A stretch of DNA of 64,000 bases from Candidatus Poribacteria bacterium (GCA_965116815.1 OZ220722.1:1695050-1759049); one strand, 5' to 3'; counted from the first letter of the stretch, positions 5,019-29,997 are shown. Notes: generated by a model from the sequence alone, not told the origin. Numbers and translations are program-made.

Positions 5019-5496
5019 CAGAAAGAATACTCCGTGATTATGTTCCGCCGAGTTTGGACGGATACAGCAATAAATAGACAAGTTCTCTCAATATCAAGTT
5101 GCTTCCGTATTGGAGAGTATACCAAACACAACGCTAAAATAAAACCCATAAATTTGAAACATCACTTTGCCGTTCTATAATTAAAGATACTATTTTGAGA
5201 CGGAAAGGGTGCATAACCTGAAATAAATTGAATTTTTCGACTGAAAAGCCGCAATTTTAAGCAAGGCTTACGCTAATTCTTTGCTTCTGGTATTTGCTTA
5301 GACAGCACTCAGAGAAGCGTGTGGCGCGTAAGCCTCACAATATTGATGGAACAGAATAGCCAAAGAGGTCTATCACTTTGTCCTATAGAGAAGGGGCGAA
5401 GACCCCTTTCTTACATTCTACTTTGGTTTCTCAGGAGGCGTTAGTTCCTGAGGAGGAGTCGGCTCTTTGAGGTGTTCTAAAGCCGCTTGTGTACCC

Positions 5497-9306: not shown

Positions 9307-10728
9307 TCAAATATCGGAACGGAAGAATTTCAGGAATGCCACGGTTGTCAATACCACAGCAAAGAAGCAGAGCAGCAGCACATCCACCGCCGATTGACGG
9401 AACGTCTCTCCTAAAGTCGTTATCTCCAAAGATGGTGGTTGTGTAATTTTGACTCGTCTGCTTTGTCTGCTATAAGCATGATCTATAATTTTACTGAACA
9501 AATCTGTATAGAGCATCTCATAATAGCGATCACCTGTTTGAAAATAGGTGCTTCTTTTTGCCTTTCCAGTCTGTGTCAAGTTTGTAGAGATATAAATTAA
9601 GGAAGATGTCGGTGTGAGTCGAGAAAGCATCTGCCCCACCTGTTCTTGCCGTTCAGTTTCACGTTTATGATTCCGATCCAATTTGTTAGAATGGTTCTGG
9701 AATCTTGATCTATATTCCGCTTCAAGAGGTTTCATACGTTCATTAATTTTTTTCGAAATCTCCCCGCCTATAGATCTGCGTCCCTTCTCATCGGGCGGGA
9801 CTTCCATGATCATTTTCTGTTTTTCCTCTTCGAGTGCTGCGTTGAAATCGTCTCGCATGGCTGTTTTTTCCATATAGACACTCTGTGCAGTCTGTGTTGG
9901 TGCGATAAATTTGGCAGCAAGGAACCCAACGCGTGGCGTGATCAATACCGCAAACACCCAGACGGTAAAGGCAACGATGAGTGCCGTTTTAGAATTGTCT
10001 AAGTAGGTGGAAATCACCGTGCCGATTGCAAAAAAGACTCCAATATAAAGCAACGAGATGAGGATTAAACTGAGAACTCTCGGAAAAATTTCAGGTTCGC
10101 CGAGAGGGAACCCTTGCCAGACAAGCATCAGTAAGCCGAAAAGCAACGACACCAAGAATGGAACGACAAACACCGCGTATCCGCCAATCAATTTGCTCCA
10201 TAAAAATAGGTCGCGCGGCAGGGAATTCGCTAAGGTGATCCGAAGGGTGCCCGCTTCTCGTTCCCCGGCAACGGCATCGAACGTAAACAGTAGGGCAAGG
10301 AGACTAAAAACAGTACCGACTATGAATAGAAAATCAAGATGCCCTAACAGATTGGAAAGAGAGGAAACCAAGGCGGGTGCCCCTTGTGTAATCCCATTAC
10401 GTGTCATGCCGAGATAGCTCGGCAACGTATCTGCTAACCCATTTGCGAAGACGCTCAAAGGGGTCGGTTTGAGGATAAGTTTGGAAACCTCCAGTTCTGG
10501 ATCCAGTGGCATCCCTGGATTCATTGTGGTTTCTTCAATGTTTGTAAGTTTAACGGCTTCTTGGTAATCCACTAAGTTCTGGCGATAATTTCGGTAATTT
10601 GTAGAAAGTGTCAGCGGGACGAGAAGGAGGCACATCAAAAGAAGCGCGACGAAACGGACGCTCAGAATATGATGCATAATCTCTTTTTGAATCATAGTCA
10701 TTAACATTTGAATTTTCCTTTCACTCAC
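9307..10728 (-). CDS. ABC-2 family transporter permease-like membrane protein (paralogue 2)
   Basis: Same architecture and GEREAGTLR motif as 6897..8312. Confidence 0.6.
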   Translation of the reverse strand: MSERKIQMLMTMIQKEIMHHILSVRFVALLLMCLLLVPLTLSTNYRNYRQNLVDYQEAVKLTNIEETTMNPGMPLDPELEVSKLILKPTPLSVFANGLADTLPSYLGMTRNGITQGAPALVSSLSNLLGHLDFLFIVGTVFSLLALLFTFDAVAGEREAGTLRITLANSLPRDLFLWSKLIGGYAVFVVPFLVSLLFGLLMLVWQGFPLGEPEIFPRVLSLILISLLYIGVFFAIGTVISTYLDNSKTALIVAFTVWVFAVLITPRVGFLAAKFIAPTQTAQSVYMEKTAMRDDFNAALEEEKQKMIMEVPPDEKGRRSIGGEISKKINERMKPLEAEYRSRFQNHSNKLDRNHKRETERQEQVGQMLSRLTPTSSLIYISTNLTQTGKAKRSTYFQTGDRYYEMLYTDLFSKIIDHAYSRQSRRVKITQPPSLEITTLGETFRQSAVDVLLLCFFAVVLTTVAFLKFFRSDI

Positions 10729-10932
10729 TGATATTGAGGATTGCGTTTTTTCAAACTAATTTCGGTGAAGTGGTGTCTGTTTCCCTTTTATAATTAAGGA
10801 TACGGGTTTGGAGGGGAAAGGGTGCATAAAACGAAAAAACTGGATTTTCATCTCAGAAATTGTAAAAATGTTGAAATTGTTGGGTGGCTTTGAGAGGTGG
10901 CAATTGCTGATAATCAAATGTTATGTAAACGA

Positions 10933-10985
10933 AAAAAATCGTGCGGAGAACTATGTGTGTTTTACATGTCTCCGCACGATATTTA
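10933..10985 (-). terminator. Rho-independent (bidirectional) terminator downstream of the BNR lipoprotein gene
   Basis: Perfect 12-bp stem ATCGTGCGGAGA/TCTCCGCACGAT with a ~20-nt loop. It is flanked by an A-run on one side and a T-run on the other. Confidence 0.75.
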
Positions 10986-11012
10986 AACGCTTATGAAATA
11001 AATGAATGTCCA

Positions 11013-14000
11013 TCAACGCTTGGGACGACGTAGCACAACGCCTCCCTGTCCAGCGACCCATAACGTCTCTCCATCTTTGACACGCGTGATGGTATACAGG
11101 TCATTGTCAATGCCGGTATGCTCCCGTTTCCACGTTTCACCGCCATCTGTTGAATGAATGATAGCACCAGCGGCACCGACGGCATAGATTTCCTGTTCAG
11201 AGAGTGCCAAAATATCGTAAAGCGTTTCCGACATACCGCTCAACTTTGACTCCCAAGTGAATCCGCCATCAGATGTGGATAGGATAATCCCGGCGCGTCC
11301 GACAGCCCATCCCTGTCTTTTCGTGATGAATGACACACCGTAAAGGTCGTAACCTGCGTATGTCTCATGGAATTTCCAATATTCGCCACCGTTGACGGTT
11401 CGCTGGATGACCCCATTGGTTCCAACCGCCCAACCGAGCGGTGCAAATTTCATATCAATACCTGTGAGGTTTCTACCCGTTGAGGTGCGCTGAAATTCCC
11501 AAATCGGACCGCCATCCAGGTTGTGAAGAATATCTCCATTTTCACCGACAGCCCATCCTTCGGAAAAATTGCCAAAGGCAACCTCATTTATGGAGATGTC
11601 AAAGCCTGGTGGCAGCTCCTGCGCGTTTTCTGTTGACCAGTCCTCACCGTCTGCGGTGTAAAGCATACCGCCATCGCGTTTCATCGCCCAGCCCCATTTC
11701 GGATCAAGACTGATGAAGTGGACATTAACGATGCGGTCCGTGGTACCACTCTCCAAACGCTCCCAATTTTTTCCACCGTCCTCTGTTGACAGCAGGACTC
11801 CGTTATCTCCGGCAATCCAACCGTTTTGCTCGTCGAGAAATATCACATCTCGGAAGTTATCGGGTGCTTCACCAAATTGGTGGTGCCAGGTCTTGCCGCT
11901 ATCTGTGGTGGCGTAAATCTGGCCCCCGGATTTTTGTGCCGTCTCAGTCCCACCCGAGTCGGCTCGATACACGTGCCCTTCATGAATCCGCTCCGCACCG
12001 ACAGCCCAACCGTGCCCATCTGCCAGGAAATAGGCGTTGGTAATTTGGGTCAAGAGTGGGTCGGCTTGTTCGAGTGCCATTCTATCTACCCAACTTGTGG
12101 GTTCGCTGTTCTCAGTTTCGCCTCTGGACGAAGTATGGAGTGGCTTCCAGTTTTTACCTTGGTTCTGTGTGGTGAGAATCGCCCCACCGATACCAATTCC
12201 CCACGCTTCGGCGTGATTTCGGAATTTCACGGTCTGCAGCTGGATATTCAAATACGTTCCTTTAATCTCTCGTTCTGCTTCCAGATCCCGTTTCCAACTC
12301 TCTCCGCCGTCTGTGGTAAACAGCGATGTCCCGTTCTCCATCACCGCCCAACCCGATGTAGCATCCATGAAATGGACACCGATACAACGGTTATGGGTTC
12401 TGGCTTGAATCTCCCAGTAGTCTCCACCGTCAACCGTGTGTAGAATCAATCCGCCAGTCCGCCGTTGGGGGGCAACTGCCCATCCCTCTTTGCTATTAAT
12501 AAAATGCAAGTCCGTAATTGACTGCTGTGTTGCACTGGTTTGCTGAGGGGTCCAAGTTTTACCGCCATCGGTTGTCCGCAGAATTTGTCCCCTATCAACA
12601 CCCAGCCATCCCTGTTTTGGGTTAATGAAGTGGATGGCACGGATACTGCCGTAGGGTCGCGCACCTGAACGCGAAGGTTGCAGGTCTTCGCGAATAATCT
12701 GCCACGTTTTGCCACCGTTTTCGGTGCGTAGTAGTACACCTTGTCCACCAATCCAACCGTGGTTTTCATCGATGAAAACAATGCGCTGTAATTCTTCTGT
12801 CACGCCACTCTGTTGCAGCTGCCATGTCGTGCCACCGTTTGTGGTGTGCAAAATGGTACCGCTACCCCCCACTGCCCAGCCCTCCTGCGCAGATAGGAAG
12901 TAGGTATCGGTGAAATGGGTTTGCAAAGCCCCTTGACGCACGATCTCCCAGTGAGATTCAATCGGTTCAATCGGTTTCTCATCGGTTTCTATATCCTGTG
13001 CAGCAGGCGGCAACTCGGCGATGAACTGCTCCGTGTCCACAGAATAGCGCATCGCAATGCCACCTTCACCCACAAGGAGGATACCATCGGGAGAGAGCGA
13101 GAAACTATAGAGATCGTTGGACGTGCCACTTTTCTGCAACTCCCACGTCACACCTCCATTGATGGTGGTCAGAATGACACCTTCATCGCCGACAATTAAC
13201 CCGTGATTCGCATCGGCAAAGTAGACTTTATTCAGATTTGCCTGCGTTCCACTCCGTTGGAATTTCCATGTTTTTCCGCCATCAAGCGTGTGTAGAATCT
13301 CGCCGAATTGCCCGACCACCCAGCCGGTGTGTTGATCGATAAAGTAAGCGGCGTAGAGTTCGTTGTAGCTGTTGCTGTTCTGTCGTTTCCACGTCAATCC
13401 ACCATCTTGGGTATGAAAGACAATACCGGGCCACCCGACGACCCACCCCTCTGTCTCATTGAGGAAAAAGATGCCTTTAATCATTTCGTGGAAATAGCGT
13501 GGTGCTTGTTGACTCCACGTTTCTCCACCGTCTGTTGTATGAAGCACAGTCCCCAAATCTCCAACGATCCAGCCCTTTTTCGGATTGATGAAATGGAGCG
13601 CATTGAGGGTGTACCACCATCCACTGGTTTGTCGTTCCCATGTCTGACCGGCATCGGTTGTGTGAAGGATAAGTCCGCCATCGCCAACCGCCCAACCTTC
13701 TTTGTCGGTAGCGAAAGATAGATTACGGATGCGATGCCACGTGTCCATCTCAATGTTCGTCCAGGTTTTACCACTGTCGTTACTCGTCGTGATTGTGCCT
13801 TTTTCTCCGACGGCAACCGCCCGGTCAGCATCCGCAAACGCGACACTTTGCAGGTCGTCAGCTGTCGTGCCACTTCTCATGTTCCATGTTACCCCGCCAT
13901 CGGTCGAGTGTAGGAGCGTGCCGTTCCAACCGACTGCCCATGCCTCTTTAGGACTTGTGAAGTGAACCCCCATTAGGTCGTTCTTCGTTGGGGTTTCTGA

Positions 14001-14873
14001 TAATCTCCAATTGTCGCCGCCATCTTCGGTTCGAGTGATAAACCCACCCTGCGCGACTGCTACGCCGTAGTCATCATCAATAAAATGGAAGTCATAGACG
14101 GTTGGACGGACGTGTCCATAAACCGGTGGAAGCCGACTATCTTGTCCTCGCCACTCTGTGCCGCCATCGCTGGTATGAAAGATGCTCCCGTCCGTGCCAC
14201 CACTCCATCCGTTGAAAGGGTTCGTAAAAAATACCGTATGGAGATTGCAAACCGTTGATGTTTGATCTTCTCTCACGAAGTTATCCTGTCCGCGCCAGGT
14301 CTGACCGCCGTCTGTGGTAACAAAGATTTGATTGTAATCTCCAACTGTCCACCCGCGCTGCTTATCCATGAACCAGATACCGCCAAGTCCGAATCCGTCA
14401 ATTGCTTCTTGATGGTGCCATGTTTCTCCACCATTTTGTGTATATAGCAGCCCATTCTGTCCAGCGATCCATCCCGTTTTTGAATTAGTGAAAAAGACAT
14501 CCATAAGCAGCGCATGGGCTTGACGTTTTTGAAGAGTCCAGTGTCGCCCACCATCGTCGGTGATAGCGATTAATCCCTTGTCACCAACTGCCCAGCCGTT
14601 ACGAAGGTTTGTGAAATAAACCGCTTTGAAATCTTCATTTGTATTCACCGTCTGTTTTTCCCAGCTCACACCACCGTCAGCCGTATGGAGAATCCATCCT
14701 TGATGCCCGACAATCCATCCGTGTTTGGCATCTGCAAAGTAGATGTCCGTAAAATGGGTTTGCCAGTCTGCTATGCGAGTAATTTCCTTTTTTACACAAC
14801 CGGTGAACAGAAAAGGCACTCCGAAGAGAATCGCCATCCAAAAGTAAGTGATGTGTTGAAAAATCTTTTTCAT
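11013..14873 (-). CDS. Giant lipoprotein made of ~29 Ycf48-like/BNR (Asp-box) repeats, predicted to form multiple 7-bladed beta-propellers (copy 1)
   Basis: Lipoprotein signal MKKIFQHITYFWMAILFGVPFLFTGC. Repeating GW(A/I)VG..G.IL.T.DGG.TW units occur roughly every 43 aa. GGAGG RBS. Confidence 0.8.
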   Translation of the reverse strand: MKKIFQHITYFWMAILFGVPFLFTGCVKKEITRIADWQTHFTDIYFADAKHGWIVGHQGWILHTADGGVSWEKQTVNTNEDFKAVYFTNLRNGWAVGDKGLIAITDDGGRHWTLQKRQAHALLMDVFFTNSKTGWIAGQNGLLYTQNGGETWHHQEAIDGFGLGGIWFMDKQRGWTVGDYNQIFVTTDGGQTWRGQDNFVREDQTSTVCNLHTVFFTNPFNGWSGGTDGSIFHTSDGGTEWRGQDSRLPPVYGHVRPTVYDFHFIDDDYGVAVAQGGFITRTEDGGDNWRLSETPTKNDLMGVHFTSPKEAWAVGWNGTLLHSTDGGVTWNMRSGTTADDLQSVAFADADRAVAVGEKGTITTSNDSGKTWTNIEMDTWHRIRNLSFATDKEGWAVGDGGLILHTTDAGQTWERQTSGWWYTLNALHFINPKKGWIVGDLGTVLHTTDGGETWSQQAPRYFHEMIKGIFFLNETEGWVVGWPGIVFHTQDGGLTWKRQNSNSYNELYAAYFIDQHTGWVVGQFGEILHTLDGGKTWKFQRSGTQANLNKVYFADANHGLIVGDEGVILTTINGGVTWELQKSGTSNDLYSFSLSPDGILLVGEGGIAMRYSVDTEQFIAELPPAAQDIETDEKPIEPIESHWEIVRQGALQTHFTDTYFLSAQEGWAVGGSGTILHTTNGGTTWQLQQSGVTEELQRIVFIDENHGWIGGQGVLLRTENGGKTWQIIREDLQPSRSGARPYGSIRAIHFINPKQGWLGVDRGQILRTTDGGKTWTPQQTSATQQSITDLHFINSKEGWAVAPQRRTGGLILHTVDGGDYWEIQARTHNRCIGVHFMDATSGWAVMENGTSLFTTDGGESWKRDLEAEREIKGTYLNIQLQTVKFRNHAEAWGIGIGGAILTTQNQGKNWKPLHTSSRGETENSEPTSWVDRMALEQADPLLTQITNAYFLADGHGWAVGAERIHEGHVYRADSGGTETAQKSGGQIYATTDSGKTWHHQFGEAPDNFRDVIFLDEQNGWIAGDNGVLLSTEDGGKNWERLESGTTDRIVNVHFISLDPKWGWAMKRDGGMLYTADGEDWSTENAQELPPGFDISINEVAFGNFSEGWAVGENGDILHNLDGGPIWEFQRTSTGRNLTGIDMKFAPLGWAVGTNGVIQRTVNGGEYWKFHETYAGYDLYGVSFITKRQGWAVGRAGIILSTSDGGFTWESKLSGMSETLYDILALSEQEIYAVGAAGAIIHSTDGGETWKREHTGIDNDLYTITRVKDGETLWVAGQGGVVLRRPKR

Positions 14874-14896
14874 CTGTTTTGCCTCCTTGGGTGATT

Positions 14897-16999
14897 TTAC
14901 TGTGTTCGAGGATTCGGGATTACAACCGGGTCGAGTAATACTGGAGATTTTTGAGAGGGTGAATAAACACCGACTGCAGCACCAGCATCCGTAGCGAACC
15001 AGATTTTACCCTGACTGTCTTCAAATACCGACCAAACGCGGTTGCTCGGTAGACCATCGTCTGTGTTAATGTTTTGGAACGTTTCGCCGTTATACACACT
15101 CACACCAACACCGACTTCAGGGATTGGAATATTATCCTCGGCTTCGTGAACCTCAATCGTTAGGGGTAATTTTTTACTACCTGTGAACCAGAGATTGCCG
15201 TTGGTGTCTCGCAGGATACTCTCAACCTTATTCATTGGAAGTTCTTCGCTTTGTGGAAAGTGAACTAATTCTTTGCCATCGTAGCGACGGATGCCAGTAT
15301 ATTCGTCCCCTACGCCTTCTTGGGTAATCCAGAGATTATTCTGTGCATCAAACTGTAGGTTTGTTATTTGTCCGCTTTGCGACTGTCCCATCTCCCTGAA
15401 AGCGTTTAAATTTACATCAAGGTACCGGAAATCAGACGTTTGGAGGTTGTAATAGGTAATACCGGCGTAGCTGCCAAACCAAAAATTTCCTGCTGTATCC
15501 TGTGCAATCGCTGTAACTTGATTCCACCAATGCGGTAGAACCTCCATCCCTGTGGGTCCATTGAAGATAAGACTGCTAAACTTTTCACCGTCGTAGCGAC
15601 TCACACCTTCATCCGTGGCGAACCAAAGCGTCCCCGTTTTGTCCTCAAACATGTCCTGAATGGGACCGCGGAGGAGTCCATCGGCTCCGGTAAACGTCCG
15701 AAACGCTTGTCCATCATAGCGACTTATACTTTCTAATGGAGTAGGTGTCTGTGTTTTCATCTCCATTTCGTCCTGGACGGTATTAGCGAGTTCGCTTAAT
15801 GGCATATTGATGTATGACATATCTATAAACTTTGGTCTATTCAGCGCATTTGCGAGCATTCCATCCCCAAACCAGAGCATGCCCTGCCGGTCTTCAAAGA
15901 TAAGACCTGTCGTGTTTCGTGATAAGCCATCTTCTGTTGTGAAGGTTTGGAAGTTGTCTCCGTCATAACGTGTGATACCGTCGGCTGTGCCAAACCACAG
16001 CGCACCTTGGCTGTCTTCAAAGATAGTGAGCACAGTATTGGATGCTAAACCATCTGCTTCGGTAATTGTTCTTTCTATAAGAAGTTTGCCGGCATTGCTG
16101 GATGCGGGCTGCATGCCAGCACCCCTGTTCTGACTCGGGTGAGATGTCTGTCCGATCTGATTCCTAACATCGGGTTTAGCATCCGTATCAAGAACGATGT
16201 CGGTATCAATGATTTCAATAGTCGGTTCGGATCTCGCCTCAAGACTATACGGCTTCTGAAAACGGGCAAGATACTGATTACTGGCACCTATCATCAACAG
16301 AATCACGACCGCGGCACTCCCAAGAGCCGCCCACGGTAACACCGGTTTCCCACTCGGAGGAGATACCGGGGTTATATCAGCAACCTCCCGCATGATACGC
16401 GCTGTCAAATCAGCGGATAATTCAACGCCGCCGAGCACTTCACTCACCAAGGGTTCTGACGCTTTTAAACGTTCTCGTCCCCGGCGAAGTCGTCCCTTAA
16501 TTGCACTCACCGACACCCCTAAGTATTTGCTAATTTCCTTAGCTGTCATTTCGCCGAGATAGTGGAGCGTCAGCACTGTGCGTTCGCTCTCTGGGAGCCT
16601 TTTCAAAAGGTTTTTAACGACTTCAGAACGGTGTTCCGCTGCTTCTGTCTCGCGCCGCTCCGACATATAATGTTGATACGAGGATTCCTCTATCTCTACC
16701 ATAGGTGTGTCCTCCAAAGATGGCATCGTGGATTTACGCCTTTTAAGCCAGTTAAGGGCAAGTCGATTTGCTATGACATACAGCCAGCCAGAAAAACATT
16801 TCGGATCCTTTAAAGCCCCGAGTTTTTTGTAGACCTGGATGAAAGTATCTTGCGTGATCTCTTCGGCATGGTGAAAATCACCAATCTTCCGCCAGATGAG
16901 GGCGTGAACACCCTTTTGATGCTTTTCAACTAAGGTGCTGAATGCCGAATCGTCGCCTGACAGAACCCTATAAATCAATTGAACATCGTTTTCTAACAT
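14897..16999 (-). CDS. ECF sigma-70 factor fused via one TM helix to an extracytoplasmic Reg_prop (two-component-regulator propeller) domain
   Basis: The sigma-2/sigma-4 regions are ~75% identical to those of 2010..5018. TM LPWAALGSAAVVILLMIGASNQYLA. Then NTVLTIFEDSQGALWFGTADGITRYDG-type Reg_prop repeats. Confidence 0.8.
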   Translation of the reverse strand: MLENDVQLIYRVLSGDDSAFSTLVEKHQKGVHALIWRKIGDFHHAEEITQDTFIQVYKKLGALKDPKCFSGWLYVIANRLALNWLKRRKSTMPSLEDTPMVEIEESSYQHYMSERRETEAAEHRSEVVKNLLKRLPESERTVLTLHYLGEMTAKEISKYLGVSVSAIKGRLRRGRERLKASEPLVSEVLGGVELSADLTARIMREVADITPVSPPSGKPVLPWAALGSAAVVILLMIGASNQYLARFQKPYSLEARSEPTIEIIDTDIVLDTDAKPDVRNQIGQTSHPSQNRGAGMQPASSNAGKLLIERTITEADGLASNTVLTIFEDSQGALWFGTADGITRYDGDNFQTFTTEDGLSRNTTGLIFEDRQGMLWFGDGMLANALNRPKFIDMSYINMPLSELANTVQDEMEMKTQTPTPLESISRYDGQAFRTFTGADGLLRGPIQDMFEDKTGTLWFATDEGVSRYDGEKFSSLIFNGPTGMEVLPHWWNQVTAIAQDTAGNFWFGSYAGITYYNLQTSDFRYLDVNLNAFREMGQSQSGQITNLQFDAQNNLWITQEGVGDEYTGIRRYDGKELVHFPQSEELPMNKVESILRDTNGNLWFTGSKKLPLTIEVHEAEDNIPIPEVGVGVSVYNGETFQNINTDDGLPSNRVWSVFEDSQGKIWFATDAGAAVGVYSPSQKSPVLLDPVVIPNPRTQ

Positions 17000-17410
17000 C
17001 AGAGAACCTCATAATAAATGAGTAAATCAGCACACATCTACGTTCTCCACAGATTAGATCTGCGGAGATGCCAAATACGCAAACTCTATTTCCAACTTCA
17101 CTTTATATTAAAGACACATTTTTAAAGCGAAAGGGTACATAATTTGAAAAAAATCAAAAAATTACTCAAATTTCCGACCTTACTTTATATTAAAGACACA
17201 TTTTTAAGAGGGAAGGGTACATAATTTAGGCGTTAGGCAAATTGAACAGAGAATCGGAAACCCATTTGCTGAAAATGCCTCGCAGTGAGAGTATTACGTT
17301 GCATATAACCCCCTAAATCCGCCAACCCCCATATCCCCCCTTATCAGGGGGGTAGGGGGACTTTAAGAGGAAATGCGTAAGTCCTAATATAATTTGATGT
17401 CATGCAAACC

Positions 17411-17467
17411 AAAACAAAAATCGCGCGGGGAGCTATGTGTGTTCTACATGCCTCCGCACGATTTTTA
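17411..17467 (-). terminator. Rho-independent (bidirectional) terminator downstream of BNR lipoprotein copy 2
   Basis: Stem AAAAATCGCGCGG / CCTCCGCACGATTTTT with one mismatch. T-run in the minus sense. Homologous to the 10933..10985 terminator. An additional 13-bp perfect inverted repeat (GACCAAGAACTCG...CGAGTTCTTGGTC) at 17489..17541 abuts the stop codon. Confidence 0.7.
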
Positions 17468-17545
17468 AACGCTTATGAGATAAACAGATTTGACCAAGAA
17501 CTCGTCTACAGATACTTTTGGTAAAGCGCGAGTTCTTGGTCAAGG

Positions 17546-20500
17546 TTAACGTTTAGGACGACGCAGCACAACGCCTCCCTGTCCAGCGACCCACAGCCTC
17601 TTCCCATCTTTAACACGTGTGATGACATACAGGTCATTGTCAACGCCAGTATGCTCCCGTTTCCACGTTTCACCACCATCTGTCGAATGAATGATGGTTC
17701 CAGCAGCACCGACGGCGTAGATTTCATGTTCAGAGAGTGCCAAAATATCGTAAAGCGTTTCCGACATACCGCTCAACTTTGACTCCCAAGTGAATCCACC
17801 GTCAGTGGTGGATAGGATAATCCCGGCGCGTCCGACTGCCCATCCCTTTCTTTTCGTGGTGAACGACACGCCGTGAAGGTCGTAGCCTGCGTGTGTCTCG
17901 TGGAACTTCCAGTATTCACCGCCGTTGACTGTTCGCTGAATTACGCCGTTGCTCCCAACGGCCCAGCCGAGGGGTGCAAACTTCATATCAACGCTTCTGA
18001 GGTTTTTACCGGTTGAAGTGTGCTGCAATTTCCAGATCGGACCGCCGTCCAGATTGTGGATAATTTCTCCATTTTCACCAACTGCCCATCCCTCAGAGAA
18101 TTTACCAAAAGCAGCTTCATTTATCGAGAGTGGAGGTAGTTGATGCTGGGGAAGATCAGGTAGTTCGCGCTGTGGAAGTTCTTGATTGTTGTCTGTTGAC
18201 CAATCATCGCCATTGGTCGTATAGAGCAGGGTTCCATCCCTTTCCATCGCCCAGCCCCATTTTGGCTCAAGACTGATGAAGTGGACATCGACGATGCGGG
18301 CCATTGTGTTGGTTTGCAACCGCTTCCAATTTATTCCACCGTCCTCTGTTGATAGCAAGGCTCCGTTATCTCCAGCGATCCAACCGTTCTGCTCATTGAG
18401 AAACAGCACATCGCGAAAATTATCAAGCGGTTCACCGAGTTGATGGTGCCAAGTTTTTCCGCCATCTGTCGTGGCGTAAATCTGACCCGTAGATGCCTCT
18501 GCTTCATTGGAGCCACCAATATCAGCCCCGACCGATTCCCTGTCGAAAATTTGTTCTCGACCCACTACCCAACCACGCCCATCCGGTAGAAAATGCGCGT
18601 TGGTAATTTGAATTGAGTATCCAAACGGACGTTCCGCTGCCATTTCTTCTATCCAACTTTCCGAGTCACCATTTTCACTTTCCTGCCCAAACAAGGAATT
18701 CAGTGTTTTCCAACTCTCACCTTGGTTTTGGGTGGTAAGAATCATCTGTCCAGCGTTAATTGCCCAAGCTGTTGCCCAAGCCTCGGTGTGATTGCGGAAT
18801 TTCACCGTAACCAGATGGATATCCAAATTCAATCCTTTAATGTCTCGCCCTGTGTCCAGATCTCGTTTCCAATTCTCTCCACCATCTGTGGTAAGAAGTG
18901 AGGTTCCGTCTTCCATTATCACCCAACCCGATGTGGCATTCAGAAAATGGATACCAATGCAACGCTGATGGGTTGTGGCTTGGATTTGCCAGTAATCACC
19001 GCCATCAACTGTGTGTAGGATAAATCCACCTGTCCGCCGTTGGGGTGCAACTGCCCATCCTTCTTGACTGTTGATGAAATGCAGGTGCGTGATCGGTTGC
19101 TGGGTTGTCCCTGTTTGCTGAAGCGTCCAGGTTATGCCACCATCGTTTGTACGCAGGATCTGCCCTCTATCGACACCGATCCATCCTTCTTTCGGATTGA
19201 TGAAGTGTATCGCACGAATATTGCGAAAGTTTTTCAACCCTTCACGGACAACGTGCCACGTCTCGCCCCCGTTTTCAGTTCGCAGCAGTACGCCTTGACC
19301 GCTAATCCAACCGTGTTTTTTATCAATGAAAACAATCCGTTGTAATTCTTCGGTCACGCTGCTCTGTTGTGTCTGCCATGTCGTGCCACCATCTGTGGTC
19401 CGTAAAATGGTACCGCCGTCACCGACTGTCCACCCTTCCTCTGCAGACAGGAAATAGGTATCGGTGAATTTGGATTGCCAACTTCCTTGACGGACGATTT
19501 CCCAGTGATATTCAATCGGTTCAATCGGTTTCTCATCGGTTTCTATGTCTTGCGCAGCAGGTGGCAACTCGGCAATGAACTGCTCCGTGTCTACAGAGTA
19601 GCGCATCGCAATGCCACCTTCACCCACAAGGAGGATACCATCGGGAGAAAGCGAAAAACTATAGAGATCGTTGGACGTGCCGCTTTTCTGTGATTCCCAC
19701 GTCATTCCACCATTGATGGTGGTTAAAATGACCCCTTCATCACCGACAATTAATCCGTGATTTGCATCGGCAAAGTAGACTTTGTTCAGATGTGCCTGCG
19801 TCCCACTCCGCTGGAATTTCCACGTTTTGCCGCCATCAAGCGTGTGTAGAATCTCACCAAATTGCCCGACCACCCAGCCGGTATGTTGATCGATAAAGTA
19901 AGCAGCGTAGAGTTCGTTATAGCTGTTGCTGTTCTGTCGTTTCCACGTCAATCCACCGTCTTGGGTGTGAAAGACAATACCGGGCCACCCGACGACCCAA
20001 CCCTCTGTCTCATTGAGGAAAAAGATGCCTTTAATCATTTCGTGGAAATAGCGCGGTGCTTGTTGTACCCACGTTTCTCCACCGTCTGTTGTATGGAGCA
20101 CAGTGCCCAAATCTCCAACGATCCAGCCCTTCTGAGGATTGATGAAATGGAGAGCATTGAGAGTATACCACCATCCGCTGGTTTGCCGTTCCCATGTCTG
20201 ACCGGCATCGGTTGTGTGCAGGATAAGTCCGCCGTCGCCAACCGCCCAGCCTTCTTTGTCAGTGACAAAAGATAAGTTCCGAATGCGGTGCCACGTGTCC
20301 ATCTCAATGTTCGTCCAGGTCTTGCCACTGTCGTCACTCGTCGCAATTGTGCCTTTCTCTCCGACGGCAACCGCCCGGTCAGCATCCGCAAACGCGACAC
20401 TCTGCAGATCATCAGCTGTCGTGCCACTTCTCATGTTCCATGTTACCCCGCCATCGGTCGAGTGTAGGAGGGTACCGTTCCAACCGACTGCCCATGCCTC

Positions 20501-21427
20501 TTTAGAAGTCGCAAAATGAACACCCATCAGGTCGTTTTTGGTTTGGTTTTCTGTTAATCTCCAGTTTTCCCCGCCATCTTCGGTCCGAATGATGAACCCG
20601 CCCTGTGCAACCGCCACGCCGTAGTCATCATCAATAAAATGGAAGTCATAGACGGTTGGACGGACATGTCCATAAATCATCGGGAGTCGACTGTATTGGG
20701 TCTGCCATTCTGTTCCACCGTTAGTTGTGTGGAAAATGGTGCCGTCTGTGCCACCGCTCCACCCCTTATAAGGGGTCGCAAAAAATACCGTATGGAGGTT
20801 GCAAACCTCCGATGTATCGTGTTCCGTTCTCGCAAGCTGATCCTGTCTACGCCAAGTTTGGCTACCGTCTGAAGTGACAAAAATCCTGTCGTAATCTCCC
20901 ACGATCCATCCGCGATGCTTGTCTACAAAGTGGATGCCACCGAGTCCGAATTCGCTCGCTTCCTGATGATGCCATGTTTTTCCACCATTTTTTGTTTGTA
21001 ACAGCCCATCCTGACCAGCAATCCAACCGGTCTTTGAGTTGAGGAAAAAGACATCCATAAGCAGCGTGTGCGCTTGATTCCTTTGCAGGGTCCAGTGTCG
21101 TCCACCGTCGTCAGTAATAGCAATTAACCCTTTGTCGCCAACTGCCCAACCGTTACGAAGGTTTGTGAAGTAAACCGCTTTGAAATCCTCATGCGTGTTC
21201 ACTGTCTGTTTTTCCCAACTTACGCCGCCATCAGCCGTATGAAGAATCCATCCCTGATGCCCCACAATCCATCCGTGTTTGGCATCCGCAAAGTAGATGT
21301 CCGTAAAATGGGTTTGCCAGTCCGCTATACGAGTAATCTCTTTTTTCACACAACCGGTGAACAGGAAAGGAATTGCCAAAAGAGTTGCTATTGAAAAACA
21401 AGTGATGTATTGAAAAATCTTTTTCAT
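17546..21427 (-). CDS. Giant Ycf48-like/BNR-repeat lipoprotein (copy 2, ~90% identical to 11013..14873)
   Basis: Start at the ATG at 21427 (MKKIFQYITCFSIATLLAIPFLFTGC) with an AGGAGA RBS. The ORF track gives 17546..21451. Long stretches are >90% identical to copy 1 at the nucleotide level. Confidence 0.8.
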   Translation of the reverse strand: MKKIFQYITCFSIATLLAIPFLFTGCVKKEITRIADWQTHFTDIYFADAKHGWIVGHQGWILHTADGGVSWEKQTVNTHEDFKAVYFTNLRNGWAVGDKGLIAITDDGGRHWTLQRNQAHTLLMDVFFLNSKTGWIAGQDGLLQTKNGGKTWHHQEASEFGLGGIHFVDKHRGWIVGDYDRIFVTSDGSQTWRRQDQLARTEHDTSEVCNLHTVFFATPYKGWSGGTDGTIFHTTNGGTEWQTQYSRLPMIYGHVRPTVYDFHFIDDDYGVAVAQGGFIIRTEDGGENWRLTENQTKNDLMGVHFATSKEAWAVGWNGTLLHSTDGGVTWNMRSGTTADDLQSVAFADADRAVAVGEKGTIATSDDSGKTWTNIEMDTWHRIRNLSFVTDKEGWAVGDGGLILHTTDAGQTWERQTSGWWYTLNALHFINPQKGWIVGDLGTVLHTTDGGETWVQQAPRYFHEMIKGIFFLNETEGWVVGWPGIVFHTQDGGLTWKRQNSNSYNELYAAYFIDQHTGWVVGQFGEILHTLDGGKTWKFQRSGTQAHLNKVYFADANHGLIVGDEGVILTTINGGMTWESQKSGTSNDLYSFSLSPDGILLVGEGGIAMRYSVDTEQFIAELPPAAQDIETDEKPIEPIEYHWEIVRQGSWQSKFTDTYFLSAEEGWTVGDGGTILRTTDGGTTWQTQQSSVTEELQRIVFIDKKHGWISGQGVLLRTENGGETWHVVREGLKNFRNIRAIHFINPKEGWIGVDRGQILRTNDGGITWTLQQTGTTQQPITHLHFINSQEGWAVAPQRRTGGFILHTVDGGDYWQIQATTHQRCIGIHFLNATSGWVIMEDGTSLLTTDGGENWKRDLDTGRDIKGLNLDIHLVTVKFRNHTEAWATAWAINAGQMILTTQNQGESWKTLNSLFGQESENGDSESWIEEMAAERPFGYSIQITNAHFLPDGRGWVVGREQIFDRESVGADIGGSNEAEASTGQIYATTDGGKTWHHQLGEPLDNFRDVLFLNEQNGWIAGDNGALLSTEDGGINWKRLQTNTMARIVDVHFISLEPKWGWAMERDGTLLYTTNGDDWSTDNNQELPQRELPDLPQHQLPPLSINEAAFGKFSEGWAVGENGEIIHNLDGGPIWKLQHTSTGKNLRSVDMKFAPLGWAVGSNGVIQRTVNGGEYWKFHETHAGYDLHGVSFTTKRKGWAVGRAGIILSTTDGGFTWESKLSGMSETLYDILALSEHEIYAVGAAGTIIHSTDGGETWKREHTGVDNDLYVITRVKDGKRLWVAGQGGVVLRRPKR

Positions 21428-21505
21428 CTGTTTTGTCTCCTTTAGTAGCAATCAGCAAAGACGCAAACGTTTAGGATCGTTTCTTTTTTTACGGGCAGCC
21501 GACGG

Positions 21506-22732
21506 CTATTTTTCAGAGGGTAGATAAACCCCGACTGCGGCACCAGCGTCCGTAGCAAACCAGAGTTTGCCACTGCTGTCTTCAAACACCGACCAGACTC
21601 GGTTACTCGGTAGACCGTCGTCTGTGTTAAAGTTTTGGAACCTCTCACCGTTATAGACACTTACACCAGTATTGACGACATTGTAAAGCATGCTAACGCT
21701 TTCCTCAGTTTCGTTTATCGTCGGAGGCAGGTTCTTGACACCGGTAAACCAGAGGTTGCCGCTGCTATCCTGCATGATGTTGTCAACGCTATTCATTGGA
21801 AGTGCTTCACTTTGTGGAAAGGTTGTCAGTTTTTTGCCATCGTATCGACGTATACCGCTGTCTTCCTCGTCCATACCATCTTTACTCATCCAGAGGTTTT
21901 CCTTCGCATCGAACTGCTGATCTGTTATGTTTGCAGTTGGGGCATTCCCCATCTCTTGGAAAAGGGTGAAGTCCTCGTCGATAGCAAAATGACGGAAACG
22001 GTTCGTTTGGAGGTTGTAATAGGTAATGCCAGCGGTGCTGCCAAACCAAAAATTTCCTGCTGTATCCTGTGCAATCGCTTTAATTTCGTCCCACCGATCC
22101 GGTAATACTTGCATCCCGATCGGTCCGTTCATAGTGATAGTGTTGAAAGTTTCCCCGTCATAGTGACTCACACCAGCCGATGTCGCGAACCAAAGCGTAC
22201 CAGTTTCGTCTTCAAAGATATCTTTAATGGTATCACGGGGGAGACCGTCGGCGGTCGTAAAAATCCTGAACTTTTCGCCGTCGTAGCGACTCACGCCTTT
22301 TAACCGAATGGGCTTTCTCGTTCCTGCTGATGTTTCATCATAGGGTGTGAGATCGAGTTCACTCAATGGCGTTTCCATCCAAGACATATCCATAGGCTTC
22401 CCTCTTTCCAGAAAGCTTGAAAGCACACCGTCAGCAAACCAAAGCATTCCTCGTTGGTCTTCAAAGATGAGACCTATCGTGTTCCGTGAAAGTCCATCTT
22501 CTGTTGTGAAGGTTTGGAAATTCTTCCCATCATAGCGGGTGAGTCCATCGGTCGTTCCGAACCACATCGTGCCACTGCTATCTTCAAAAATGGTGAGCAC
22601 CGTATTGGATACCAAACCATCCGCTTGGGTTAAGGTCTTTTCGATTTTAAGCTCCGCTGCGCTGGCAACATATACTACCCAATTCAACAGTAGAAACATA
22701 GCAAGCCACATTGCATGAGATCGTTTTCGCAT
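21506..22732 (-). CDS. Secreted stand-alone Reg_prop beta-propeller protein (paralogue of the C-terminal domain of 14897..16999, without a sigma domain)
   Basis: Probable start MRKRSHAMWLAMFLLLNWVVYVASA (signal peptide) at 22732. The repeats TLTQADGLVSNTVLTIFEDSSGTMWFGTTDGLTRYDG are near-identical to the fusion protein. There is no room for a sigma domain before the next gene. Confidence 0.7.
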   Translation of the reverse strand: MRKRSHAMWLAMFLLLNWVVYVASAAELKIEKTLTQADGLVSNTVLTIFEDSSGTMWFGTTDGLTRYDGKNFQTFTTEDGLSRNTIGLIFEDQRGMLWFADGVLSSFLERGKPMDMSWMETPLSELDLTPYDETSAGTRKPIRLKGVSRYDGEKFRIFTTADGLPRDTIKDIFEDETGTLWFATSAGVSHYDGETFNTITMNGPIGMQVLPDRWDEIKAIAQDTAGNFWFGSTAGITYYNLQTNRFRHFAIDEDFTLFQEMGNAPTANITDQQFDAKENLWMSKDGMDEEDSGIRRYDGKKLTTFPQSEALPMNSVDNIMQDSSGNLWFTGVKNLPPTINETEESVSMLYNVVNTGVSVYNGERFQNFNTDDGLPSNRVWSVFEDSSGKLWFATDAGAAVGVYLPSEK

Positions 22733-22961
22733 TGAAAAACTCCTTCTCTCGGAAATATGGAAGCATTCTAATTTTTGGATTTTTGCTATCCCGAAATGTG
22801 TCGTCCATTTGATGTAAGTGGGGTTCAGAATCAGTTGTAGTTCCAGTATGACCGAAAGCAAGGTAACTGATACCGAGTAGTAACAAACAGACAAGAAGTA
22901 GGTTAATTATTACAAAGCGCATTTTCTCTTTCCTTATTTAAAGTTAAGAATTACGCTGAAC

Positions 22962-23780
22962 TTACAAGCGGTAATTTGCTAATTTGATATCCGCCCAAGT
23001 CGTTGTCACCTTATCGCTCGGTGAAACAGCGAGGAAGTTTCCCGACATTGCTTGTTTGATCTCGGTTCCACTGAGCCCGCGCTGCCATACCGCTGCTTCG
23101 TCAATAGAGCCATTGACAAATGCATATTTATTTTTTGCGCATCCTATCCAGACGGGTGCGATATTGTCACCAGCGAAGTTGAATTCCTTCTTTTCTTCGC
23201 CCATGACTTCACCGTCTAAATAGATTTTCGTCGTTTTCCCGTCGTAACTTCCCGCAACATGATGCCACCGTTTTTCCTTCATTTTGTGCGGAACGATGAA
23301 TTCTTGTCGATCCGAACCCCCATGGTCATCCCGTGACCCCAGAAGCAACCAGATTTCTGGTCCGCGACCGATGTCAATACTACCGATGCCATAAGAGGCT
23401 CCCCACTTGACTTCAAACCAATGACAGCCCTTATCAATCCAATGCACCTTCTTGCCTTTCCACGTTTCTTGATAATAGACCCATGCCATCATTGTTATTT
23501 CATCTACGACTTTTAACTTCTCCCGAGACGGAATATTGACGCAATCCTGTCCGTTGTTCGTAATGTGGATTGCATCCCCATACTTACCCTTGACAATCTC
23601 AGTATTTTCAATGATCTCCGCGTCGAGACCATTACCCGACGTATCAACAATCGTCTGCTTTTTAACGTTGTCAAAGTCCAGATAAAAAACGAGGTCTTCA
23701 TTAAGCCCTGCGTTCGCGTGAGTCGTCACTAACAGAATAACAACATTAAAAAAGATAGTACCGATGGGTAACCGTGCCAT
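22962..23780 (-). CDS. Secreted LamG-like (concanavalin-A-like lectin/glucanase, Laminin_G_3) domain protein
   Basis: Signal peptide. The DTSGNGLDAEI..GKYGDAIHITNNGQDCVNIP motif is characteristic of LamG_3. Confidence 0.6.
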   Translation of the reverse strand: MARLPIGTIFFNVVILLVTTHANAGLNEDLVFYLDFDNVKKQTIVDTSGNGLDAEIIENTEIVKGKYGDAIHITNNGQDCVNIPSREKLKVVDEITMMAWVYYQETWKGKKVHWIDKGCHWFEVKWGASYGIGSIDIGRGPEIWLLLGSRDDHGGSDRQEFIVPHKMKEKRWHHVAGSYDGKTTKIYLDGEVMGEEKKEFNFAGDNIAPVWIGCAKNKYAFVNGSIDEAAVWQRGLSGTEIKQAMSGNFLAVSPSDKVTTTWADIKLANYRL

Positions 23781-24321
23781 ATTTTTGCTCCTTTATGATT
23801 TGTCGAGTTTCCCTTGAAATGGTAAACGTAAAGACAATGTGCAATTTATGTGCCAACCTGAGAGTGATATCATGGTGAAACGGGAAATATCGCCTTGATA
23901 GTCGGTTGAACGCGGGATTAAGCGATTTTTAGGAGATAAAAATATTTGAAAGAACACTGCACCAAATAGGGCAGATAATACGGACAACTGCACGAATTTG
24001 TGCAATGACCTCGACGCTGTGTGCCTTTTATGTTTCAACATTAGATGAACCATTTTGTCAGTCATATATAGTAAAGTCCGTAACTATCTATACATCACCC
24101 AAAGGGCGAGGATACAATCCTCGCCAGCGGCGTGGAAGGTTGGTTCGCTAACCAACTAACTGTCTATATGTTTCCGGGCTTTACTACTTTACTATATAAT
24201 GACGCGGATAGCAGACGAAAGGGTTGCCTAATTCTGCCAAAAATTGGGGGAAATGTAATAAAGGACATAGATCGCGTCTATGTCCAAAGGGAAGTGTAGG
24301 AAGGCGTATTCTTGACGCTAT

Positions 24322-25388: not shown

Positions 25389-25733
25389 TTAAACTTCGTA
25401 GAAGGGCATTGAAATGTTAATTTCTGCGGCAGGCTTGTTAGCAGGTCTACCTCGGACAACAATTTCAATGTCGCAATCCAGTTTTCTAATCAGTGAAAAC
25501 AGCTGCTGAATAGAAAAGTCATCAAGCAAGCCATCTTGAAGGGCAGAAAACTCAGACTTGTTGAGGTCTAGCATCTTGGCTGCCTTACGTTCCGTGATCC
25601 CGCTTTTGGTTATAATACCATTGATTATTAAGGCAAGGCGGGCTTTCGCAAGGTATTCCTCTGGGTTGGGAACCTCCAAATCTTTAAATACATTGCCGCT
25701 ACCTTTTTCAATTTCAATTTTTTTCTCAGTCAT
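25389..25733 (-). CDS. HTH (XRE-family) antitoxin of a type II TA pair
   Basis: Its start overlaps the upstream toxin's stop by 4 bp (ATGA). A helix-turn-helix-like segment reads ITERKAAKMLDLNKSEFSALQDG. Confidence 0.6.
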   Translation of the reverse strand: MTEKKIEIEKGSGNVFKDLEVPNPEEYLAKARLALIINGIITKSGITERKAAKMLDLNKSEFSALQDGLLDDFSIQQLFSLIRKLDCDIEIVVRGRPANKPAAEINISMPFYEV

Positions 25734-26074
25734 TTTTTCTCCATTTGTGCCTGTGCTTTTACTATGTTTAAGCGTCTACGGATTAAATCAATTTCCTTTT
25801 TTGGAGTCTTTATTCCACGCTTTGATTTCTTCTTGAAGCAGTGGAGGACATAAATCAAATCTCCCAGGTTCACCACGTAAACCGCCCGATAGGTATCACG
25901 AGCGTGATCTCTCACAATTTCATACACTCCCGAAAATCCTCGCAATGGTTTAGTTTTGTCAGGAGTTTCTCCACCCTGTGCCTCTTCCAGTGCATAGCCG
26001 ATTTTCCTCCGAACATCGGTCGGAAATTCTAAGAGCCGCTTCTTCGAGTCCCCAACCCAGAAGACGGGGCGCAT
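25730..26074 (-). CDS. RelE/ParE-superfamily toxin (Gp49/HigB-like 'addiction module killer')
   Basis: The KPLRGFSGVYEIVRDHARDTYRAVYVVNLGDLIYVLHCFKKKSKRGIKTPKKEIDLIRRRL pattern is typical of Gp49-like toxins. The ATG at 26074 is preferred over the TTG at 26095. Confidence 0.6.
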   Translation of the reverse strand: MRPVFWVGDSKKRLLEFPTDVRRKIGYALEEAQGGETPDKTKPLRGFSGVYEIVRDHARDTYRAVYVVNLGDLIYVLHCFKKKSKRGIKTPKKEIDLIRRRLNIVKAQAQMEKK

Positions 26075-26275
26075 TTGTTCGTCTTGCCTAAGCAAATTCT
26101 ACCAAACTCGAGAAGATTTTGCAACAGTTTTTTGCTATCACGGTACCTATGCAAATCTACAGGGATTTTGGGATAAATGCGGATTGGTTGCGTCTACATT
26201 TACTTGTAATGAATCTTGACACGTCGCACAGGCGCGAAAATCTTCACGACACACAAACTCGGGCAGATGCTACGT

Positions 26276-28198: not shown

Positions 28199-28218
28199 GG
28201 ATTCACCTGTTGGAAAAT

Positions 28219-29172: not shown

Positions 29173-29202
29173 TTTTAAGTTCGAGGATAGTGGTAAGGAT
29201 AT

Positions 29203-29823: not shown

Positions 29824-29997
29824 ACTTTTTCTCCAAACCGTAAAAATAAAATGCTTTCGTTCAACTCGGAACCGTTTAATTTCCCAATGATCTTGCTTGA
29901 ATTTCACTTGGAACAAGCGAAATTCTAAGTATTGGAAGAAACTAAGTGGCTTTCTTATTCACTTAGACAGCATAGAGAAAAAAAGGTTCGTTTTGTT

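Follow-up and report, generated by a model that had tools for sequence, protein, structure and literature searches.

Old tandem propeller cassettes in Candidatus Poribacteria, one of which probably gained a membrane-tethered sigma module

The window analysed here, a 64,000-nt stretch of DNA from a Candidatus Poribacteria bacterium (GCA_965116815.1, OZ220722.1:1695050-1759049), carries two neighbouring cassettes, each made of a gene for a Reg_prop beta-propeller (RP) and a gene for a large BNR lipoprotein. One propeller is a secreted, sensor-only protein, and the other is fused behind an extracytoplasmic function (ECF) sigma factor and a transmembrane (TM) helix (sigmaRP). How did such a pair arise? 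A preliminary description had read it as a recent tandem duplication in which the second copy lost its sigma domain, and had suggested that the sensor-only protein is a decoy receptor or that sigma was a late addition to a secreted propeller. We consider it probable that the two cassettes are old tandem paralogues and that recombination replaced the signal peptide of the unit 1 propeller with a module of sigma factor, TM helix and juxtamembrane (JM) motif. Under the same reading, the fused protein would be a sensor whose sigma part is released by proteolysis and activates its own operon, and the core of the BNR genes would have undergone conversion.

Both cassettes and the LamG gene ahead of them lie on the minus strand, as do the terminators, promoter-like motifs and sigma fusions described below, and are read in the order LamG, RP, BNR2, sigmaRP, BNR1 and ABC-2 permease genes. 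In unit 2, the sensor-only propeller (21506..22732, 408 aa) starts at ATG 22732, with GAAGGAG just before it, and has its own signal peptide (MRKRSHAMWLAMFLLLNWVVYVASA), as had been proposed. A 462-aa open reading frame (ORF) from TTG 22894 is an over-extension of this gene, and LamG ends 229 nt ahead of the true start codon rather than the ~70 nt given earlier. BNR2 (17546..21427, 1293 aa from ATG) is a BNR/PSII_BNR (Ycf48-like) multi-propeller lipoprotein with the lipobox LFTGC. A spacer of 546 nt separates it from the sigma-propeller gene of unit 1 (14897..16999, 700 aa). This fusion consists of an ECF sigma core with sigma2 and sigma4 (aa 1-190, 16430..16999; Sigma70_r2 5.5e-12, Sigma70_r4_2 7.1e-15), a segment with linker, single TM helix (~aa 221-244), periplasmic JM motif and low-complexity spacer (16064..16429), and a periplasmic Reg_prop propeller (aa 312-700, 14897..16063). 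The conserved JM motif reads RFQKPYSxEAxSEPTIEIID (aa 246-265). BNR1 (11013..14873, 1286 aa), a lipoprotein of the same type and lipobox as BNR2, begins 23 nt past the sigma-propeller stop codon, and the two genes are probably co-transcribed. Each BNR lipoprotein spans roughly four propellers.

The two units are collinear, as the preliminary description had stated. Pairwise blastn returned one collinear alignment of 16063..10910 (unit 1) with 22630..17389 (unit 2), at 78% identity over 5281 columns (E = 0). The 5' edge of the repeat coincides precisely with the first residue of the mature propeller, and the 3' edge lies ~100-150 nt beyond each BNR stop, through a homologous hairpin and T-run terminator. 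After BNR1, this is an intrinsic terminator at 10925..11012 (minimum free energy -28.0 kcal/mol, then a T-run), the 3' end of the duplicated segment. After BNR2, two hairpins occupy 17400..17545 (minimum free energy -51.7 kcal/mol), the second of them being the terminator, with the stem ATCGTGCGGAG.../...CCCCGCGCGAT and a T-run. The BNR1 terminator is homologous to 17400..17470, and since each BNR gene is followed by a homologous terminator, each unit ends its own transcript. Separately, the spacer downstream of BNR2 holds ~190 nt of intergenic DNA (~17230..17420) that is extra relative to L004, one of the surveyed loci of relatives (L-numbers throughout), with a CCCCCCTGATAAGGGGGG hairpin and the motif TAGGACTTACGCA. 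Because this motif recurs between genes in relatives (intergenic regions of L003, L005, L008, L020 and L032), the stretch may be a small dispersed repeat or a miniature inverted-repeat transposable element.

Comparison with other poribacteria suggests that the form without sigma is the original one. We surveyed ~40 poribacterial loci from GTDB species representatives, using the fetched DNA around each. The order DLH-SDR-(LamG)-RP-BNR was the common core across these loci and occurs in most poribacterial species, and a single sigma-less unit stood alone at twelve numbered loci (including L011 and L013) and at others. The signal peptide of the sensor-only gene and its leader and ribosome-binding block, TTTCCGAxAGAAGGAGTTTTTCA-ATG, were kept in the distant relatives L001, L003, L005, L008 and L009. 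Layouts with more than one propeller gene varied. The SDR-LamG-RP-BNR-sigmaRP-BNR order of the window was also found in L010, in L004, whose 6.19 Mb contig comes from another sample, and in L012, where the locus lies on a chromosome of 6.66 Mb. A sigmaRP-RP-BNR layout was present at eight loci (L003, L005 and L019 among them), and sigmaRP-RP-BNR-RP-BNR at L023 and L030. L008 and L024 have RP-BNR-RP-BNR with both copies sigma-less; their junction ORF (15197..15595, 132 aa) is similar to the N-terminal part of an ABC-2 permease (29% identity, E 2e-6), which points to an independent duplication with a boundary different from that in the window.

A propeller tree (64 sequences, neighbour-joining, 378 columns, rooted with L046) agreed with this view. 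The window's sensor-only propeller clustered with its orthologues from LamG-RP-BNR loci, whereas sigma-fused propellers formed three separate clades, each with 100% support. The clade that contains the window fusion was sister (88%) to a sensor-only clade. The two propellers of the window are not each other's closest relatives. Identities told the same story: the fused propeller was 63-67% identical to every sensor-only group but shared only 60% and 54% identity with the remaining two fused clades, and at 65% it was no nearer to the window's sensor-only propeller than to those of other species.

The preliminary description had also held that the sigma-TM part of unit 2 is absent rather than decayed, and had named a remnant found by profile search as what would refute its reading. 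We found no sigma2, sigma4 or TM remnant in 22630..22961 (E > 0.8) using tblastn with six sigma-TM-linker modules, blastn-short and an unfiltered profile hidden Markov model; the sole match was the N-terminus of the mature propeller, AELKIEKTLTQADGL. Absence is thus borne out, but loss is not, because the signal peptide and 5' leader are conserved in distant relatives, the cassette sits in the ancestral position, and the propellers are not closest kin. The data favour the other suggestion of that description, that sigma was added to a pre-existing secreted propeller, given how widespread the sensor-only form is and how well its leader is conserved. Judged from these comparisons, unit 2 (LamG-RP-BNR2) appears to be the phylum-wide ancestral cassette, with sigma gained by unit 1 and not lost from unit 2. 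As the sole form in many species, the sensor-only cassette must have a function independent of sigma.

The part gained by unit 1 behaves as a discrete module. Its sigma core matches the ECF profile (TIGR02937, 96.9 bits against a cutoff of 42.9), with no equivalog model reaching its own cutoff, and the presence of sigma2 and sigma4 domains only places it among the ECF (group 4) sigma-70 factors. The core is under purifying selection (omega, the ratio of nonsynonymous to synonymous divergence, 0.09-0.28). A tree of sigma cores separated two alleles, sigma-I (window, L004, L006, L010, L012 and L001) and sigma-II (L003, L005, L019, L023 and others), and this division was incongruent with the propeller clades. 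L001 illustrates the mismatch: its sigma core is 94% identical to that of the window fusion, but its propeller only 56%, and it switches tree groups at ~aa 210. Synonymous divergence (dS) between the two genes climbs from 0.12 in sigma to 0.78 in the TM/JM part and 1.71 in the propeller, a jump that marks a recombination junction at the DNA level. At the protein level, the junction of L003-type fusions, TFARTAELKIEK, can be aligned to the c-region of the signal peptide in sensor-only genes, VYVASAAELKIEK, which would follow from splicing of the module into an existing gene for a secreted propeller. L001 and L049 belong to one genome (OX638352.1), in which the order is SDR-LamG-RP-BNR2type, ABC2, transposase, NosD-like, ABC2 and sigmaRP-RP(355 aa)-BNR1type. 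With a window-type sigma core and a TM/JM part and propeller of another type, this genome holds a recombinant intermediate that can help in tracing how the locus arose.

We also considered a simpler route, in which unit 1 arose by recombination between an adjacent sigmaRP and RP in one lineage. The propeller tree favours this, in that the fused propeller is sister to RPs that lie downstream of fused genes, but the sigma allele (sigma-I vs sigma-II) misfits a single event, which leaves this route as no more than a possibility.

The module reaches well beyond Reg_prop propellers. A word-indexed search with the 115-aa TM-JM segment gave seven fragments, and an exhaustive search of representatives gave 245 clusters (50% identity), with the segment almost always at residues ~187-300. 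Among 58 full-length members, sigma domains were found in 55-57, BNR/Sortilin ectodomains in 19 and WD40 ectodomains in 17. The only residues invariant across these diverse members lie on either side of the TM helix, with P220 and P223 preceding it and P251 and Y252 following it (KPxxP / FQxPY). Cluster look-up yielded one named member, from Candidatus Poribacteria, and the best named homologues of the locus, with all close loci, are likewise Candidatus Poribacteria. The window itself contains a second fusion (2010..5081, 1023 aa), in which a sigma-TM-JM part 57% identical over 358 aa to that of the first is joined to BNR/Sortilin-type propellers; equivalents lie downstream of ABC2 at four surveyed loci (L009, L039, L045 and L047). 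We ruled out that its ectodomain is a direct copy of a BNR lipoprotein, as the similarity is at the level of repeats only (22-30%). These distributions indicate that the sigma-TM-JM module is portable, being joined to three unrelated propeller lineages as well as to BNR and WD40 ectodomains.

From this portability, a broader interpretation follows that we regard as possible but doubtful. It holds that the module is a plug-in that has repeatedly captured neighbouring secreted propellers (Reg_prop, BNR, WD40) by homologous recombination, and that each sigma allele co-evolved with its own promoter variant (TG[T/A/C]ACC). If so, each capture would have made a new one-polypeptide transmembrane sigma sensor whose ectodomain is paralogous to a structural protein of the same locus. 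Nature would then have supplied, replicated across the phylogeny, a series of sensor pairs with and without sigma whose junctions are mapped.

ECF promoters typically have two blocks, and motifs of this kind precede both units. P1 (GAATTAGGCAACC-N17-CGCGTCATTATATA, GCAACC...CGTCA; 24193..24227) lies between SDR and LamG, upstream of unit 2, and recurs at 27 other poribacterial loci in the interval from SDR to whichever gene opens the cassette (LamG, RP or sigmaRP). Upstream of unit 1, TGTACCC-N16-TGTCTTTAATATAAAG occurs as two tandem copies with an 82-nt period, P2a and P2b (17107..17139 and 17189..17221), 108 and 190 nt ahead of the sigma-propeller gene, where 0.01-0.04 would be expected by chance. 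L001, L004, L010 and L012 keep both copies, and L006 has a single variant copy (TGTATCC); sigma-II loci carry TGAACC-N18-CGTCT at the equivalent place. A related motif, P3 (TGCACCC-N16-CGTATCCTTAATTATAAAAG; 10793..10826), lies 66 nt upstream of the ABC-2 permease gene (9307..10728) that follows BNR1 and is conserved upstream of ABC2 at 12 other poribacterial loci. This conserved placement suggests that the ABC-2 transporter operon may belong to the regulon of one of the fused sigmas. P4 (TGCACCC...AGTATCTTTAATTATA; 5180..5213) lies upstream of the second fusion, and TGCACCC…GTATC motifs precede the ABC-2 gene and the sigma-BNR fusion at 12 or more other loci in the same way. The third base of the -35 block covaries with the sigma allele: TGTACC with sigma-I, TGAACC with sigma-II, and TGCACC before the sigma-BNR fusion. 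A strict promoter pattern matched L004 only, and the motif family was recovered with relaxed regular expressions. A scan for sigma-70 promoter and terminator consensus sequences gave counts no higher than in shuffled sequence. From the motifs and their distribution, we infer that unit 1 is autoregulated by its own sigma and that unit 2 is driven from a different, older promoter.

Structural prediction placed the ectodomain with known sensors. In an AlphaFold2 model of the fusion built with 18 homologues, the propeller had a predicted local distance difference test score mostly of 80-93 over residues 310-680, lower in loops 387-422 and 614-623. Foldseek against the PDB matched the propeller best to the sensor domains of BT4663, BT3049 and BT4673 (E 3e-16 to 1e-13), with PorZ, virginiamycin B lyase and Ycf48 at lower ranks. 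The match to these Bacteroides hybrid two-component system (HTCS) sensors spans one propeller, with a TM-score of about 0.35 over 380-400 columns. By analogy with them, the ligand of the propeller is possibly a glycan.

Combined with the invariant residues around the TM helix, which make regulated proteolysis the most likely activation step, these features suggest how the fusion could work as a one-polypeptide transmembrane signalling sigma factor. The periplasmic propeller would respond to a ligand, or else to the condition of the BNR protein co-transcribed with it, and sensing would trigger cleavage at the invariant juxtamembrane and TM region by regulated intramembrane proteolysis. The freed sigma core would then steer RNA polymerase to the duplicated TGTACC-N17-TGTCT promoters before its own gene, with positive feedback on sigmaRP and BNR1 as the outcome. 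The sensor-only cassette would keep a sigma-independent structural or binding role under separate regulation.

Several known systems share parts of this architecture. Planctomycetes have ECF sigmas that are extended at the C-terminus by a TM helix and a WD40 beta-propeller (Jogler et al. 2012; Wiegand et al. 2020; both via PMC8567305). Compared from descriptions, they share with the window fusion an ECF sigma2 and sigma4 core, a membrane segment and a beta-propeller ectodomain, and 17 of the 58 members of the TM-JM module family noted above likewise carry WD40 propellers. They differ in that the ectodomain here is Reg_prop (BNR in the second window fusion), the host is a poribacterium, and a sensor-only paralogue and a BNR lipoprotein stand alongside. 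Our literature search returned no experimentally established mechanism for the Planctomycete ECF-WD40 fusions (PMC8567305), and searches on ECF sigmas in Poribacteria and on ECF01-Gob with WD40 returned nothing relevant. The closest characterised precedent for activation by regulated proteolysis is IutY of Pseudomonas putida (ECF243), a FecI-FecR hybrid that, like the window fusion, is one polypeptide with the ECF sigma at its N-terminus, a single TM helix and a part that senses in the periplasm (PMC5411451, PMC8999054). This sigma/anti-sigma hybrid is activated by Prc and RseP proteolysis (PMC8999054, PMC5411451). IutY has a FecR-type anti-sigma and periplasmic domain and takes its signals from a TonB-dependent receptor, whereas the window fusion has no FecR, anti-sigma or TonB-dependent partner; no FecR or anti-sigma family was among its Pfam and NCBIfam matches. 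In Actinobacteria, ECF48, ECF52 and ECF53 (for example SCO4117) join sigma, zinc finger, TM helix and an extracellular carbohydrate-binding extension (PMC5826349, PMC8999054) and are predicted to be activated proteolytically as IutY is (PMC8999054, PMC5411451). They resemble the window fusion in having a sigma with a transmembrane C-terminal extension, which in their case ends in a putative carbohydrate-binding ectodomain. The window fusion has another ectodomain fold, belongs to another phylum and has no zf-HC2/ZAS (HxxxCxxC) in its linker: aa 181-220 contain no Cys or His motif, and zf-HC2 was not matched.

The HTCS sensors (BT4663, BT3049, BT4673; PDB 4A2L/4A2M, 3V9F, 3OTT/3VA6), of which BT4663 senses heparin/heparan sulphate, have the seven-bladed Reg_prop propeller fold in common with the window fusion. 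In both, the propeller is held outside the membrane, N- or C-terminal to the TM helix, and the output is transcription. HTCS sensors have two propellers and Y_Y_Y and act through kinase, receiver and AraC domains; the window fusion has one propeller, no Y_Y_Y or kinase domain and a sigma output, and is not an HTCS sensor. The BNR lipoproteins consist of blades like those of Ycf48/HCF136 (PSII_BNR) and BNR/Sortilin-Vps10 (PF14870 1e-125 to 1e-131; NF010237 437 bits). Ycf48, which acts in photosystem II assembly, is one seven-bladed propeller of ~330 aa, compared with about four in the window proteins (1286-1293 aa), and BNR1 shows 14-17 matched stretches. Poribacteria are not known to be photosynthetic, and four-propeller lipoproteins in such a phylum are not Ycf48 equivalogs.

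If the sensor-only cassette were instead a decoy or competitor, as had been suggested, its propeller and BNR2 would titrate ligand or BNR partner away from the fused sensor and thereby tune the threshold of the sigma factor. In favour of this, the two propellers have the same fold and similar sequences, each with its own BNR partner, fused and sensor-only genes are directly adjacent in many relatives (sigmaRP-RP-BNR), and homologues of known structure have two propellers in each sensor, so that a heteromeric interaction is conceivable. Yet we think it unlikely as a primary role, because most poribacterial species have RP-BNR at this place with no sigma-fused propeller in the fetched DNA, so that the supposed decoy exists without its target, and because the two units carry different promoter motifs. 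Where a genome carries both forms, cross-talk between them, or a modulatory role as decoy or heterodimer partner, may still occur. The fused and sensor-only propellers may pair in the periplasm and, by analogy with the Bacteroides HTCS sensors, rebuild their twin-propeller ligand site.

A further alternative concerns the sigma factor itself, which might never be released. It would then act at the membrane in the manner of ToxR or CadC, recruiting RNA polymerase to nearby DNA, or form a sequestered, inactive reservoir. The short linker with no recognisable anti-sigma domain is compatible with this, as is the lack of a protease gene among the window genes scanned. Against it, the TM-flanking invariants of the 58 module members are better explained by a site for processing or recognition than by a passive anchor, IutY, the hybrid that has been characterised, is freed by Prc and RseP (PMC8999054), and a sigma working in holoenzyme at the membrane would be sterically demanding. 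We therefore give a tethered but active or stored sigma a small chance and continue to prefer proteolytic release.

The age of the duplication bears on the reading with which we began. Nucleotide identity between the units swings from 55 to 97% along the repeat. For the propeller pair, the Nei-Gojobori method gave a dS of ~1.2, nonsynonymous divergence (dN) of 0.24 and omega of ~0.2; BNR1 and BNR2 had a dS of 0.75 overall. This overall value conceals a strong contrast. In the N- and C-terminal thirds of the BNR genes, paralogue dS was 0.9-1.04 compared with an orthologue dS (window vs L004) of 0.17-0.23, whereas in the core (codons 301-650) paralogue dS was 0.39, orthologue dS 0.36-0.39 and cross-pair dS 0.48-0.52. 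Equality of paralogue and orthologue dS is the pattern expected of ongoing gene conversion confined to the core, and we read it as a sign that the BNR genes continued to exchange core sequence after duplication. Conversion need not be the whole explanation for the most similar stretches. The core (codons ~301-650, about one propeller) is 88-98% identical at the protein level in all family members compared, with flanking propellers at 35-80%, so constraint contributes as well. This conservation points to a core that is strongly constrained and presumably functional. Both copies are under purifying selection (omega ~0.1-0.3). The preliminary description had cited as an example of >90% identity between the BNR genes a match whose identity holds (93.4% for 13000..13150 against 19554..19704) and whose partner coordinates were 14 nt off; at the literal offset, identity is 22%. 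The orthologues of BNR2 include L004_BNR2 and L049_B11282, and among BNRs it comes nearest to those of the single-unit loci L011 and L013.

Outside the BNR core, then, synonymous sites are near saturation, with paralogue dS (0.9-1.2) 4-5 times the divergence between window and L004 orthologues, and the duplicated layout is common to four species-level genomes. By both measures the duplication is old, and the word 'recent' does not stand. For the same reasons, we find it very improbable that a recent tandem duplication of the sigma-propeller and BNR genes was followed by a clean deletion of the sigma-TM part upstream and acquisition of a signal peptide. Collinearity, local stretches of 90-97% nucleotide identity and the missing sigma remnant would all fit that history, but the high-identity core turns out to be conserved across all family members compared, the sensor-only signal peptide and 5' untranslated region are conserved even where the fetched DNA shows no fused copy, and the propellers group apart in the tree. 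That an assembler expanded one real unit into two can be dismissed as negligible, since beyond the generic risk attached to repeats there is nothing in its favour, the copies differ in domain content and at 22% of positions, which an assembler cannot collapse or expand, and the arrangement recurs in three further species-level genomes that were assembled independently, in two cases into contigs or chromosomes of several Mb (the window protein is itself recorded on a 5.85 Mb contig).

Some observations weigh against our interpretation of old paralogues with a gained sigma module. In the propeller tree, the fused clades sit on long branches and deep nodes have weak support (28-80%), so any exact order of the fusion events is tentative. 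BNR1 groups with BNR2-like (beta-type) BNRs, whereas the fused propeller falls near another RP lineage; unit 1 is thus itself a mosaic, and a simple history of whole-unit duplication is no more than possible. The absence of sigma-fused copies elsewhere in other genomes rests on a pattern-seeded scan. On the side of mechanism, AlphaFold2 confidence was low for the sigma, TM and JM parts, and proteolytic release, autoregulation and ligand are all points that we infer. The cytoplasmic linker between sigma4 and the TM helix is only ~35 aa, with no anti-sigma domain or zinc finger recognisable in Pfam and NCBIfam scans, which means that tethering alone would have to keep the sigma inactive.

The surroundings of the cassettes vary among relatives. 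LamG (Laminin_G_3, 22962..23780, minus strand; PF13385 5e-20) is predicted to be secreted and is the first gene of the unit 2 transcription unit in this lineage, with LamG at the same position in nine surveyed loci (L004, L010-L013, L016, L022, L026 and L049). Between it and the sensor-only propeller gene, a small ORF from 22921 (minus strand) encodes a hydrophobic peptide (MRFVIINLLLVCLLLL... / MRFVIINLLLVCLLLLGISYLAFGHTG...). This ORF is common to L004 only, absent from the other LamG-RP loci, and contains a GAACC-N18-CGAC string. Further upstream, a toxin-antitoxin-like pair of Gp49/HigB-like and HTH_37 genes (25389..26095, minus strand) is inserted between the DLH and SDR genes, which are directly adjacent in L003, L005 and L008. 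A canonical trio of ECF sigma, anti-sigma and RseB-like genes (27095..29916) is a conserved neighbour of the cassette locus. The anti-sigma beside this stand-alone ECF sigma (28219..29172, minus strand) has three tandem, near-identical zf-HC2 (ZAS) repeats (ELSAYLDNEL...HLxxCxEC) before its TM segment, and its relatives in L003, L005 and L008 are shorter (256-257 aa).

Overall, in place of a recent duplication in which a domain was lost, our results give this locus a history of old paralogues, one of which gained a domain and whose sequences were locally exchanged by gene conversion. ECF sigmas extended by a TM helix and a propeller were already known from Planctomycetes, and the window adds a Reg_prop variant in Poribacteria. 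Together with its ~40 poribacterial relatives, the locus makes a compact comparative set in which the same propeller occurs with and without the sigma-TM module, recombination junctions can be placed within ~30 residues, and promoter variants track sigma alleles. Where activation takes place is hinted at by the invariant motif that surrounds the TM helix. These features yield testable predictions, among them that sigma/promoter pairs are orthogonal, that a site-2 protease is required, and that propellers bind their BNR partners. More broadly, the locus would show how new signalling proteins are assembled by recombination of adjacent paralogues, in an uncultivated, sponge-associated phylum.

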